64,000 nt of DNA, taken from positions 96,596,001 to 96,660,000 of the forward strand of contig OZ024741.1 of the NCBI GenBank assembly GCA_964016885.1. The letters are read 5' to 3'. The notes below the pieces were generated by a model. That model ran no database searches. It was not told the DNA's origin and worked only from the letters and a program-made list of their open reading frames with translations. The position numbers and the translations under genes were made by a program. Source of the stretch: Eledone cirrhosa (taxonomy: Eukaryota). Shown here one piece after another: positions 1,863 through 62,702 of the stretch; positions within the stretch are counted from its first letter, which is position 1, and each line of letters starts with the position of its first letter.

Positions 1863-2165
1863 ATTAGGATTGGTGCTCTGAAATAGGGATATATACATAA
1901 ATGTATGTATAGTATATTTGGCAATATACCGTATGTTTAATTAATAAACATTTAGAAGACCATACGCTATCAGTTTTGAAGTAGTGACTATGTCACCTTT
2001 TTTTGGCGAAAGAAGGGACAGAAGATGACAGTCTGTTTCACACTATTGGCCTTCATCGGAGCCACGAACTCCGCTGCTACCGCCGAAAATTATAGAAGCT
2101 AAATTTTTATAGAATTCCAGTAATAATCAGGAGCTGATTATACAGAGCGATTGTCGGTCCAGCAA
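1863..2165 (-). mobile_element. Short non-coding PLE-like element (family B) with degenerate hammerhead
   Basis: Homologous to both arms of 10330-10795 and flanked by (TA)n. Minus strand reads CCGATGA..GTGAAACAGACTGTC. Confidence 0.65.
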
Positions 2166-2188
2166 TATATATATATATATATATATAT

Positions 2189-2303
2189 AGTAATAATAAT
2201 AAATTTGAAGACTAAAATCAAAAGAGGGCTCGATAAGGATAAATATATATCAAATATATAAGAACCCTAGAGCAATATTTATTAAAATAACAAATTAAAG
2301 TTT
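2189..2303 (-). mobile_element. 3' terminal fragment of the Naiad PLE family (family F)
   Basis: Near-identical to 62365-62480 and overlaps the terminus of the PLE at 26303; (TA)n on both sides. Confidence 0.75.
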
Positions 2304-2349
2304 ATATATATATATATATATATATATATATATATATATGTATATATAT

Positions 2350-2745
2350 ATGTATGGGTGTGGGAGGGGGTTGTTACTTACATTACTTTTCTACCTTGCT
2401 ATATGTATTATATATATATATATATATTATTATTATTATTATTATAATATATATATATATATTACTACTTTAGGCACAAGGCCAGCAATTACCCAGCGCA
2501 TTACTGGTACTTTATTTTATCGATCCCGTAAGGATGAAAGGCAAAGTCAACCTCGGCGGGATTTGAACTCAAATCGTAAAGGGACGTAACTATGCTGGAA
2601 AGCATAGCGTCCGACCCTCTACTGATACTGCCAATTCACCACCATATATATATTATAATAATAATAATAATATATATATATATATAATACATATAGCAAG
2701 GTAGAAAAGTAATGTAAGTAACACCCCTCTCCCACACGCATACAT
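2350..2745. repeat. Inverted repeat (about 100 bp arms) with a SINE at its centre
   Basis: GTTACTTACATTACTTTTCTACCTTGCTATATGTATTA in the left arm is the reverse complement of TAATACATATAGCAAGGTAGAAAAGTAATGTAAGTAAC in the right arm. Confidence 0.85.
2465..2643 (-). mobile_element. tRNA-derived SINE, same family
   Basis: A and B boxes, Nin-type core and tail on the minus strand. Confidence 0.9.
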
Positions 2746-3212
2746 CCACACACACATATATATATATATATGAGTGTACTGTTGTCGTGAAGTCGTGGTC
2801 CACTTCCATTATGATGTCCGAAAATTCTACAAAAATGTGCATGCGCGCAAGCGTATCTGGACACTCCAAAAAGGACTTTCAGTATTAAATAAGGAGTGCC
2901 AGTTTATTAAAGAGTCAGGCCAGATTGATACAGATCGTACCTCGAGCTGATCAATAGCGAAACGGGCGTCAACAACCAATAAACGTAATGAAAGTTTAAC
3001 TAATCGTCCATGTATTATTATCCTTATTATTATTATTACTATTATATATATATATATATATATAATAAGGAGTTGACGGACCCAGCATATTTATCAATGC
3101 CAGGACCGGTTGTACCTCAGCGTACTCAATAGTCAATGTAAGATACATTCCCAGAGTATACACATAGTTATTCGCTTCAATACGACACACGTAAAACGGG
3201 TGCTTATAATAG

Positions 3213-3328
3213 TTACCGGACTCGAGTTTCGGCCGCACTAATGCAGCAGTAAAGTGCACTGTACCCTCCATCTGCATATATTATGCAACAATGGATAATC
3301 GGTGTATATGGCTTCATCAGCGAGTATT
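3213..3328 (-). ncRNA. Candidate type I hammerhead ribozyme with 83-nt stem II region
   Basis: Minus strand: TACTCG CTGATGA AGCC...GGCC GAAA C TCGA GTC CGGTA; palindromic loop III as in PLE minimal hammerheads. Confidence 0.55.
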
Positions 3329-4189
3329 GCCTAATCAATAACCAATCGATCGACATAATCCAAACCCCAGCCTATGCCGGCCATGACTGTTTGTGACAAC
3401 CGACACGGTAAAGCGATTAGCAACTGGAGTCCGATACAACACTGTCCCTCGACTAGCCACCGATTTACAAACTTTACGTGGTGGCGGGAGAATAGAAAAC
3501 AAATATTTTTGTTCCCGTCAAAAGATCTCAGTCAACGTGTATCACACTCAAATTGATAAGAGGTGAACAGATGGTTATTAGAAATAGTAGTCCCATATAA
3601 TGTCTCCAAGTCCAACGGCTAGAGGAAAGCGATAGTAACAATGGTAGTGCAATGAATCTTTGACGGCCTTTAAATGCCATTATCTCTTATAGAGTGATAT
3701 ATAGTAGCGAGCTGAATTGCGCCAGCCGCGTGCGTAAAACCAGTCTATTTCACAACATAAAAGAGTGAGAGATAAAGTTAATAGCAGGAAATAAAGAGCG
3801 CATATCAATATATATATGCTCATCGAACCGGCTTCTGTAAAGTTTCTGTAGAAATATTAGAGAGAGGCAAAAAACATCAGTATGGGCCAGATGTCGTAGT
3901 CTGTGTGTGATTGATTGCTTGCTAATCAGTTGTCTCATCCTTCATTACTTTGGATATCTGTGTACAAACATACTTCAAAATTCCTATCGATTCTTATATT
4001 TTGGATTACGACACAGAATGAGCATTTCGTCATCCGTGTCTTGGAGCCCAGTTTTCATTATAATTTTATTGCATGTTATCTCACTATTGATACTAGTCGA
4101 ATTTGATCCTCAAAATATCCCTTATTGGTTAAAAAGGAAATCCTGTATTTCAGAGGAGATATTAATTGTGATTTCGTGATTTTTATAAC

Positions 4190-60087: not shown

Positions 60088-60328
60088 TTCTCTCTCTCCT
60101 CCCTCTCTCTATCTCTCGCTCTCTCTCACTTTCTCCCCCTCTCTCTATCTTTCTATCTATCTATCTATCTATCTATCTACCCATCTATCTATCTATCTAT
60201 CTATCTATCTATCTATCTATCTCTCTATCTCTCTATCTATCTATCTATCTATCTATCTATCTATCTATCTATCTATCTATCTATCTATCTCTCTCTCTCT
60301 CTCTATATATATATATATATATATATAT
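60088..60328. repeat. (CT)n/(CTAT)n/(TA)n compound microsatellite
   Basis: Direct reading. Confidence 0.95.
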
Positions 60329-60519
60329 GTATGTATATGTGCCGGGTATGGCATGTACACCTCTGGCAGATGAATTGTTTGATGACGGGCCACCAGCTCC
60401 AGATAAGTAATAAATGTGGTTAAGAAAGCCAGAGCCAAATTATCATCGGGTCCAAACGGAATAGCCTATCAAGAATGTCTCAGAGTCCTTGAGTGGATCC
60501 CCAAAATAAGGTCAGCATA

Positions 60520-61720
60520 GTAGAATCTGAAGATTAGCGATGGATGAGAGCCGAAATTATATACATCCTGACTAAGCAGAACTCGAGCGACATCACTACT
60601 TCAGATCGATAACACTTCTGAACGTTCAAGGTAAAATGTTCTTCTCTGTTATGACTCCAGTACTAACTAGATATCTCACAGAGAATATGTACGTGCACAT
60701 GGTGGTCTAGAAGGGAGGCATCGTGGAGTGTCTCGTTTTATAGAACATGCCTCAACGATTTGGGAAGCAATTCAAAGAGCTAAAGCAGAAAAAGGAAGAC
60801 TTCATGTGGTGTGACGTGATCTGGCGAATACCTACGGTTGGCTTCCTCACAAAATGATGCTACTAGCTCTCGAGTTATACGATGTTCCAAAGAACATCCG
60901 AGAAATGCTGAAGATGTATTTTCGTAGTTTCTCCATGTAATTCTCCATCAACCACCTGGACTAATCTAGAGATTTGCATAGGAAATGACTGTGAAATCTC
61001 ACACTGTTTGTGTTGGCAATTGATGTAATCCTGAAGGAGGCAATGTGCTGGTCAGCTCCAAAAGTGTTCGAAGAAGTATTTCGAATGCCTTCATAGGCGA
61101 CTGTACACTCCTTGCCACAAAGGAAGTTCAAACCCGTAGGATACTGACGTTTGGTAATGTTCGAGAATTCGATCTGGCCGAAGCTGAAGACAGGCAGAAA
61201 ATGCAAAGTCCAGGGGGCGATGGATGATATAGAGGTAAACATCCTGATCAAAGAAATAATAGGATACTCTCAAGCCATCAAGCAGTGGCTGGGCGTAACA
61301 AAAATGGAACGGTTGTCAGAAGACAGTGGGAAGATGAGGAGAGAACATGATATAGAAGTAGAGGAAACAAGAGGATTCCAGAGGACTCCAGAATGCAGTA
61401 CAACAGAGCCATCGCCAGTTGACGTCATGGGAAGGTGGACTCCAGAATTGTCTTTAGTAGAATGAATTGTAGCATATGGCGCCACTTAGAAATAATTTTC
61501 GTTTCAGATTTGTGTATGATATCCTACCTTCGAATACGAATCTAGTGAAGTGAGGCAAATCTGATAACCCAGCGGACCCACTCTACTACGCACCACACAA
61601 AGTGGAACACATCCTGAGCACACACAGAGTAACACTATCTCAAGAAAGATATAGGCGGAGACGCAATCAAGTGCTTAAGGAGAGTGCACATGTTATAAAA
61701 ATGAAATTAATGTATGTTTT
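60520..61720 (+). pseudogene. Decayed RLE-type non-LTR element (HERO-like)
   Basis: FRSITLLNVQGKMFFSV, IWEAIQRAK..LHVV..DLANTYG.LPH and EHILS....LSQERY..R.NQVLKE. Confidence 0.7.
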
Positions 61721-62097
61721 AAAAAAGGGGAGACATGTTTATATTAAACTGCTTTGGAATATCTTTTCATACATTTCCATTATATAGATTAAGGTTGTTT
61801 GTAATTTGAATCAGTACAATCAAATCTATCGAAGAGTTTAATATACACTATGTGGTATATATATATATATATATCTATATATATATATATATATATATAT
61901 ATAATAAATGTTCGGTAAACCCATACGTACATATATATATATATATGTGTGTATGTATGTATATACATACTACTGTACGTCTGTATGCATATATGTATGT
62001 ACGTATACATACCTATATTTAAGTATCAGCCGTACTCAGAGTGAGAAATGAAATTTCATTGTTTCCATTTATATATATATGTATATATATATATCAG

Positions 62098-62265
62098 ATA
62101 GTGTATGGTAGAAACCAGCTAGACCATAACCCACCAGAGTATTCCATACTCGGAGTAGTAGAGTGGGTAATAGGAAAAGATTCAGGATCCGAACGAAAGC
62201 CTTTAGTTCGGATCTAGCAGTCGAAACAACCGCAGCTCAGTTGTCGGGTTTCCTGAATCATTTCA
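62098..62265 (+). mobile_element. Family A element with degenerate hammerhead-like fold
   Basis: GATTCAGGA/TCCTGAATC stem I and GAAAC AAC..GTT GTC stem III; the CUGANGA box is degenerate. Homologous to 7603-7785. Confidence 0.65.
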
Positions 62266-62364
62266 TATATATATAATGTATATATATATATATGTTTATA
62301 TATATATGCATATATATATATATATATATATATATATATATATATATATATATATATATATATA

Positions 62365-62702
62365 TAGTAATAATAATAAATTTGAAGACTAAAATCCAAA
62401 GAGGGCTCGATAAGGATAAATATATATCAAATATATAAGAACCGTAGAGCAAATATTGATTAAAATAACAGATTAAAGTTTAAGCAAAGAATCGCTGCTT
62501 TCACCCGTAACAGGATCTTCTGAAATTAACAAAGTCAATCTGTGAACGCGGAAGTGAATATTTCAAAAAACGTTGCAACCGGTTGCAACGTTTTTTGAAA
62601 TATTCACTTCCGCGTTCACAGATTGACTTTGTTAGTTTCAGAAGATCCTGTTAAGGGTGAAAGCAGCGATTCTTTGCTTAAACTTTAATCTGTTATTTTA
62701 AT
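62365..62702. mobile_element. Family F (Naiad 3' end) fold-back: 244-bp spacer-less palindrome 62459-62702
   Basis: Centre at 62580/62581, two mismatches seen between arms; matches 26303-26425. Confidence 0.92.

Follow-up and report, generated by a model that had tools for sequence, protein, structure and literature searches.

The window analysed here is a stretch of 64,000 nucleotides from Eledone cirrhosa (GenBank assembly GCA_964016885.1, contig OZ024741.1, positions 96,596,001 to 96,660,000 of the forward strand); all positions below are counted from its first letter. Its Penelope-like retroelements (PLEs) and the hammerhead ribozyme motifs that accompany them are the subject of this report. 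A preliminary description, made from the sequence alone, had seen here at least six short non-coding families with hammerhead-like cores (A, B, C, D, F, G, and a single motif) and had interpreted them as a dense population of non-autonomous ribozyme retroelements mobilised by Naiad-type proteins and targeted to (TA)n. Hammerhead-bearing PLE sequences targeted to (TA)n are indeed what the window contains, as follows from a descriptor search, from the (TA)n at the element ends, and from the coding pieces, of which the two larger ones are listed first, together with family F:

26305–29490, minus strand: near full-length, decayed Hydra-clade PLE, recognised by profile, motifs, and (TA)n at its ends
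26305–26426, minus strand: family F hammerhead of type I with U4A in its core (CAGAAGA, at 26366) and 5 bp in stem I, predicted cut after 26326
62366–62712, both orientations: two truncated copies of family F, inverted relative to each other, with a 95-nt tail on the left copy (inverted match of 98%, 62454–62698 with 62707–62463)
2189–2302, minus strand: tail-only fragment of family F (95% match to 62380–62480)
45238–46929, minus strand: second Hydra-clade element, 5'-truncated and with several breaks (profile positions 306–708)

The open reading frame (ORF) of the element at 26–29 kb (29428–27298) encodes a reverse transcriptase (RT) followed by a GIY-YIG endonuclease and is disrupted by one frameshift near 28900 and one stop at 28006; the 3' end of the element is family F, which was thus correctly joined to a coding element in the preliminary description. 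A profile of 712 positions, derived from 78 of 120 homologues, is matched with its positions 1–702 at 29428–27343 (minus strand), where an RT motif at 28392 precedes the GIY-YIG region, and a second time at 46929–45250. Hydra diagnostics are found in three coding pieces, the third of which belongs to family C at 40 kb. RWR, DKT, and CxCx5C can be read in the 26–29 kb element, with the cysteine linker after the RT, and CxCx5C also in the 45–47 kb element; towards the end of the endonuclease CxH is present in all three pieces and CxxC in those at 45 and 40 kb, the first C being missing in the 27-kb piece. Pfam gave no match for six PLE ORF pieces. The element at 26–29 kb therefore has what characterises the Hydra clade (C-terminal GIY-YIG, an RWK-like motif, DKT, the CxCx5C linker, no CCHH), is inserted in (TA)n, and ends with a type I hammerhead, the core of which has U4A. 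Naiads have the endonuclease in front of the RT and are described as being without canonical hammerheads (PMC8557442). In the 26–29 kb element GIY-YIG is not N-terminal to the RT, DKT is found rather than DKA, and there is no CxC between endonuclease and RT. Judged by domain order and motifs it is a Hydra-clade PLE and not a Naiad, as which it had been described.

Published Hydra-clade PLEs (e.g., Hydra-1_Obim and Penelope-13_HM; PMC8557442) share with the elements of the window the C-terminal GIY-YIG, the RWK-like motif, DKT, the CxCx5C linker, the (TA)n target, a type I hammerhead near the 3' end, palindromic stems III, and inverted 5'-truncated copies. The (TA)n target is reported for nearly all Hydra families, among which there is an octopus family, and the published hammerheads, located near the 3' end, show the layout of B and F with a 1x1 mismatch under stem II (PMC8557442). 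In comparison with the hammerheads listed there, the window families differ in sequence by eye, F shows U4A together with a stem III loop of 9 nt, the core of H is U3-A8, and the 3' untranslated regions (UTRs) are longer, the distance from stop to hammerhead being 0.9–1.1 kb in the coding copies of the window.

With respect to family F it should be mentioned that the 5' end of the fragment at 2189–2302 lies at most 1 nt from the predicted cleavage site, which, as one case, is a single indirect hint of cleavage in vivo. The same tail base ends two independent F copies, and the bases concerned are seen again where the coding element begins at its 5' end, in low-complexity sequence. The 3' UTR of the 26–29 kb element contains a tandem duplication of approximately 137 nt (26450–26723, 77% identical by self-BLAST). 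Just upstream of its ORF (29450, minus strand) there is a GAGCACT-like word, and similar words occur in the tails of B (1875), A (7730), and the 3.3 kb motif (3125) and, by eye and without statistics, in four published Hydra consensus sequences, where they lie in the tail or at the 5' end. The word is a candidate for an RT binding or initiation signal.

The further families with motifs of type I, or with parts of such motifs, are the following:

1864–2164, minus strand: family B copy, core CCGAUGA at 2059
10331–10800, both orientations: two family B copies as an inverted pair, with a core at 10517 on the minus and one at 10642 on the plus strand and with the Hydra-type U.U mismatch under stem II
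3065–3400, minus strand: single 3.3 kb motif, core at 3320, with a long stem II insert, an 8-nt palindromic stem III, and a bulged stem I
7605–7783, both orientations: family A inverted pair, 3' half of the hammerhead only, tail on the right arm
11000–11043, minus strand: family A fragment, 3' half only
62094–62266, both orientations: relative of family A, 3' half and an inverted tail piece
18838–19004, plus strand: family D copy, core with C3U
25066–25331, both orientations: family D copy, core at 25291 (minus), and an inverted tail piece
38928–40810, both orientations: family C, a 5'-truncated Hydra element (40281 to 38928, minus) and an inverted copy from 40282
42776–43530, minus strand: motif H, a hammerhead of type I in which the core at 43094 has U3-A8, stem I measures 10–11 bp, and stem III is an 8-nt palindrome
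43813–44886, both orientations: family G, a non-coding unit of 530 nt in head-to-tail arrangement, with 1.24 copies on the minus strand (44469 to 43813), and an inverted copy (44467–44886)

Self-BLAST and alignments place families A, B, C, D, F, and G and the single motif (given as 3.2 kb rather than 3.3 kb) where they had been described. The hammerhead search advised in the preliminary description yielded eight matches to a type I descriptor with a score of at least 10 and a stem III of at least 4 bp (two each in C, G, and F and one each in B and H, hence in five families) and none to an Rfam hammerhead model, a result taken up below. In 60 local dinucleotide shuffles the descriptor gave a mean of 0.68 and a maximum of 3 matches, a contrast that is optimistic because the descriptor was widened to the U4 and U3-A8 variants only after the sequence had been viewed. 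All eight matches have (TA)5 22–193 nt downstream, as compared with a background of 14.7% of positions. The claimed (TA)n setting agrees with the finding that (TA)n lies within 3 nt of 23 of 24 element 3' ends; the exception is the family C end at 40718, where (TA)n follows 93 nt further on. Matches at 23765, 53724, 4325, 14112, and 11226 were dropped, since stem III has at most 3 bp, and for the three that were checked no (TA)n is close by.

That the cores are hammerhead-like is correct for most motifs as judged by the descriptor, but in family A only half of the motif is found, and in D stem III consists of one pair. Full consensus core letters are present in B (10517 and 10642), C (39003), D (25291), the 3.3 kb motif (3320), and G (43940), and altered ones in B at 2059 (U4C), C at 40622 (G12A), D at 18874 (C3U), and G at 44639 (G5A). 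At least one complete copy of the type I core with stems I–III in the order C-G-S occurs in each of B, C, F, G, H, and the 3.3 kb motif, with the reservation that F has U4A, H has U3-A8, and the stem II of B is weak; A, lacking CUGANGA, and D do not have it. Palindromic stems III, considered suitable for dimers, are real in the 3.3 kb motif, G, and H, where the calculated stem III self-duplex amounts to −9 to −11 kcal/mol, but TTTAAA of D does not form a stem III palindrome when the register is chosen so that a stem I exists. Self-cleavage of all these hammerheads is a prediction.

How much of this is non-coding is best seen with family C. It contains an endonuclease remnant of 65 codons (40278–40084; E = 5.5e-10, matched by 62 of 78 proteins in tblastn) and therefore represents a coding element truncated to 1.35 kb, accompanied by an inverted copy, whereas for G, with a best E value of 1.3 in the profile search, the designation as non-coding stands. 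Family C has hammerheads at 39003 (intact core) and at 40622 (12-bp stem I). For the latter a reading as type CSG was discarded as a presumed artefact caused by the mutation in GAAA, given the 12-bp stem I of the type I alternative. Motif H is absent from the preliminary description and is a newly recognised type I motif, the hammerhead fold of which differs from the best fold by a free energy (ΔΔG) of 1.8 kcal/mol. It lies approximately 0.9 kb downstream of the ORF at 45 kb after subtraction of the G insertion and probably forms the 3' terminus of the 45.2–46.9 kb Hydra element, if the two are continuous across that insertion. The presumed 3' UTR is interrupted between H and G by one copy (43533–43639) of a 180-nt repeat, which is found at 1162–1348 and at about 15 further places and which we take to be an abundant sequence resembling short interspersed nuclear elements.

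In family A, GAAA, stem III, and the UC site are kept and CUGANGA is missing upstream on that strand in all four segments. The relative at 62184–62260, with its 9-bp inverted repeat and with a long hairpin ahead of GAAA, gives the impression of a hammerhead that has lost its CUGANGA segment by deletion. The D motif at 25291 has stems I and II of 4 bp each; a Hydra-type 9-nt stem III was rejected for it because this leaves no stem I. A further inverted D fragment (18550–18589) stops just before the core. For B a common 5' end was considered and dropped, the 1.9 kb copy extending about 20 nt beyond the hairpin where the 10.5 kb copy inverts. The profile search of the window revealed no coding remnant in A, B, D, or the 3.3 kb motif. 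This is uninformative, because these stubs of 50–470 nt are shorter than the 0.9–1.1 kb between stop and hammerhead in the coding copies and thus would not reach an ORF. Most likely they are truncated PLE 3' ends like F and C. The minimal type I hammerheads of PLEs are known as single or opposite-strand dispersed motifs from truncated PLEs, with an extra nucleotide after A9, palindromic stems III, and a U3-A8 variant, and nothing essential sets A–H apart from them; opposite-strand motif pairs 100–700 bp apart were considered to be "probably related to truncated PLEs" (PMC4209133). Inverted truncated copies and tails belong to the standard anatomy of PLEs (PMC8557442; PMC4209133; PMC11167929).

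Family G is the only candidate for a non-autonomous element. Its tandem of 657 nt and its inverted copy, which carries a 120-nt tail, consist of segments that are all 98% identical (self-BLAST), and its hammerhead at 43940 has an intact core, a 6-bp stem II base, and a 10-nt palindromic stem III, a complete register for which two others (with a short and with no stem II) were abandoned. A non-autonomous population, as had been proposed, thus reduces to G, since C keeps endonuclease codons and F is the end of a coding copy; conversely, the possibility named in the preliminary description as its refutation, that all copies are simply truncated ends of coding PLEs, holds for F, C, and probably H, and G argues otherwise. 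Non-LTR retrozymes (PMC7229834; 10.64898/2026.07.22.740005) are likewise non-coding tandem units with a type I hammerhead. G differs from them in its 530-nt unit, in its PLE-type inversion and tail, and in that, instead of two consecutive units with complete hammerheads, it has 1.24 units with the upstream motif truncated at C3. It is quite conceivable, although not the reading we favour, that G arose by a one-off template jump in which two truncated pieces of a coding element's 3' UTR were joined head to tail: the junction of the tandem, at 44223, coincides precisely with the end of the inverted copy's tail, and in the window G is found at one locus only, with the upstream hammerhead cut at C3. 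The junction, however, passes through a brief stretch of TA homology and continues in 110 nt that are unique and not part of a repeat, like the tail-to-5'UTR junction of the coding element. Because there is one locus, a circular template and a template jump are not separable for G.

Family I, which was overlooked in the preliminary description, is of a different kind. Its three copies (9.2, 9.7, and 29.9 kb) lie in (TA)n, are 72–86% identical (self-BLAST), and are at most 430 nt long, two of them measuring approximately 420–430 nt between (TA)n runs:

29531–29950, plus strand: family I copy with a rearranged hammerhead at 29791–29895, CUGAUGA at 29883–29889, predicted cut after 29839
9627–9814, minus strand: family I copy, core at 9686 with G12C
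9181–9608, minus strand: family I copy, CUGAUGA lost through a 21-nt deletion

The order of the core blocks is cleavage site, GAAA, CUGAUGA (S-G-C), which is a non-circular permutation. The helices are I (7 bp, 29840–29846 with 29876–29882), II (5 bp, 29820–29824 with 29850–29854), III (5 bp, 29834–29838 with 29859–29863), the extension VI (6 bp, 29825–29830 with 29870–29875), the hairpin V (8 bp, 29797–29818), and IV (4–6 bp, 29791–29796 with 29890–29895), in which the bases after CUGAUGA pair with the 5' end. Stem II has 5 bp with the upstream strand and 0–1 bp with the strand directly 3' of CUGANGA. Since stem II is closed by the upstream strand, A9 leads into IV and 10.1 follows V, which results in a four-way junction by which stem II might be held in a stack with the core.

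A descriptor for this order is matched by only two family I copies, with scores of 14 and 12, as compared with 0.018 matches at a score of at least 12 per shuffle (500 shuffles). Pairing is retained in 86 of 91 cells with four two-sided changes, two in I and two in V; helix IV is offset by one alignment column, and two cells of V are broken. The sum of I, II, IV, V, and VI is 32 pairs in both scored copies. For comparison, the rearranged core order has an estimated 430 chance matches or so in prokaryotic sequence, of which 120 were examined with all stem II registers tried: among these 120 the helix total is at most 25, and none has a stem I of at least 4 bp together with II, IV, and V. The fold is thus supported by pairing and covariation, and catalysis is presumed.

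Of the six block orders that are possible for hammerheads (PMC10085705), type SGC comes closest. Of the features of types SGC and CSG, family I has the S-G-C order with stems I and III, a short linker of 3 nt between stems I and II, two pseudoknots, and an extra helix. It differs from them in that stem II is closed by the upstream strand rather than by one directly 3' of CUGANGA, with helices IV and V lying between A9 and 10.1, a step for which known hammerheads have at most 1–2 nt between A9 and stem II (PMC10085705). It also differs in being genomic and eukaryotic, SGC being known from metatranscriptomes and CSG from two metagenome sequences. Hammerhead variants with additional helices are mentioned in PMC13725137.

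A counterpart appears to exist in published Naiads. The last 260–330 nt of 53 of 54 Naiad consensus sequences (supplement of PMC8557442, with excerpts) were compared by eye, not systematically, with motifs further upstream falling largely outside this view. The helix order of family I, in other sequences, can be recognised in nine ends (Bfor, Amil, Aacu, Anas, Chem-3, Movir-2, Plae, Obim, and Ovul), which, Amil, Aacu, and Anas being nearly identical, represent about six independent lineages from four phyla; stem I of Bfor has only 2 bp and IV of Ovul only 3 bp. The two octopus ends also share with family I the (TA)n target and a distance of approximately 65 nt from core to end, whereas sequence similarity is not evident by eye. 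A complete type-CSG layout is seen in eight nematode ends (Nbra-1 to -3, Hcon, Hpol, Asuum, and two from Pristionchus). In the other 37 ends neither form was recognised, save that Smim has stems I and III and the S-G-C order. Some Naiad ends were flagged by the authors only as HHR_core or HHR_half_core (PMC8557442). The bivalve and hemichordate Naiads end with a common GC-rich conserved 3' motif unlike a hammerhead, which is possibly another structured RNA.

Most likely, family I either represents the 3' end of a Naiad-clade PLE or is a short element derived from one; its parent has to be deduced, since a motif scan of the window found no Naiad coding sequence. On balance we think that Naiads carry non-circularly permuted hammerheads, those of nematodes being of type CSG and those of ctenophores, cnidarians, acanthocephalans, and octopus having a seventh topology with a split CUGANGA block and a four-way junction replacing the A9–10.1 link, of which family I would be a genomic example cleaving after 29839. 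Several points weigh against this. When all six block orders are searched, the motif at 29883 scores 15, a level reached 0.67 times per shuffle; the full core is present in this one of the three copies only, and position 10.1–11.1 is a mismatch. The covariation comes from three sequences, and the structure was derived from those same sequences; the likeness to Naiads was read by eye rather than computed; and a motif scan found no Naiad-type coding sequence in the window, nor do the family I copies have any coding match.

There is the alternative that family I is a hammerhead-derived structure for protein binding or RT initiation that has lost catalysis. We regard this as rather unlikely, although A9 is separated from stem II by more than the 1–2 nt that known hammerhead alignments permit (PMC10085705), Naiads multiply well "without" hammerheads (PMC8557442), and two of the three copies have damaged cores. 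In published Naiad ends, however, reading by eye shows all of CUGANGA, GAAA, and a UH site next to stems I and III to be preserved, and the nematode ends have the complete layout of a type that has been shown to cleave. If the interpretation of family I as a permuted ribozyme of Naiads is true, it removes the stated exception that Naiads lack hammerheads, makes non-circularly permuted ribozymes, for which metatranscriptomes and two metagenome sequences have been the only sources to date, a numerous component of animal genomes, and breaks the rule that CUGANGA must adjoin stem II. Family I makes the role of PLE hammerheads testable across all endonuclease-bearing clades. In the literature searched, which did not extend to most subscription papers and the supplement of one 2026 preprint, no report was found that links Naiads or animal genomes to permuted hammerheads.

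Taken as a whole, the window probably presents the 3' ends of several PLE families, mostly stubs of the Hydra clade, with G mobilised in trans and family I a permuted hammerhead of Naiad derivation. Each of A, B, C, D, F, and G has a locus with an inverted copy, and in A, C, F, and G the ends differ by a tail of 80–120 nt. In the mechanism that we envisage, the GIY-YIG endonuclease would nick (TA)n and the RT would begin downstream of the hammerhead, at either of two internal positions in the RNA of the element, the two start sites accounting for the optional tail. The RT would usually stop early and often fold back, giving an inverted copy; a start downstream of the hammerhead followed by an early stop leaves in each insertion a hammerhead or its 3' half. 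F and C derive from coding Hydra-clade elements, as is shown by the coding sequence with which they are continuous, and H probably does so too; G would be a short non-coding unit mobilised in trans; and family I would carry a permuted hammerhead with stem II closed by the upstream strand and two extra helices forming the four-way junction at the A9/10.1 step. To this reading it can be objected that A, D, the 3.3 kb motif, and three more B and F copies do not reach a type I descriptor score of 9, that no Rfam hammerhead is found among the 150 listed of 179 window matches or among the 10, 5, and 0 matches of three focused scans, that all three F copies depart from the consensus core by U4A, and that for B, C at 39003, and 3320 alternative monomer folds with stem III unpaired are favoured (ΔΔG of 9–10 kcal/mol). 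For another PLE no reads ending at the site were obtained, and its ribozyme was dispensable for insertion in vitro (PMC11167929).

The preliminary model, under which every family is an autonomous-like, non-coding retrozyme that has a circular RNA of its own and is moved by a Naiad protein, appears improbable. It can draw on the 530-nt non-coding tandem unit of G, on the missing coding remnants in B, D, A, and the 3.3 kb motif, and on the uniform spacing of two family I copies between (TA)n runs, but it conflicts with the endonuclease sequence within C, with F being contiguous with a full ORF, with the outcome of the Naiad motif scan, with tandem arrangement being confined to G, with 5' starts that vary among the copies of each family, and with family A being without half the core. 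As stated, the finding of the preliminary description is largely known biology of Hydra PLEs. That the motifs are chance matches in AT-rich repeats, for which the result with Rfam and the 42 CTGANGA heptamers in the window, mostly unrelated, might be cited, is very improbable in view of the shuffle contrasts, the proximity of (TA)5, the pairing of family I and its prokaryotic null, and the published Hydra layout, and it is largely refuted for C, F, G, H, and I, although stem III of D may still be due to chance.

Among the other repeats of the window are a Mariner-like DNA transposon remnant in (TA)n (11063–11950; 70-bp inverted ends, 91% identical; HTH_32 match) and two copies of a long interspersed nuclear element (19200–24600 and 31500–38200; 71% identical by self-BLAST) with endonuclease, RT, and zf-RVT domains in Pfam, fragments of such elements being found also at 56000–57400.

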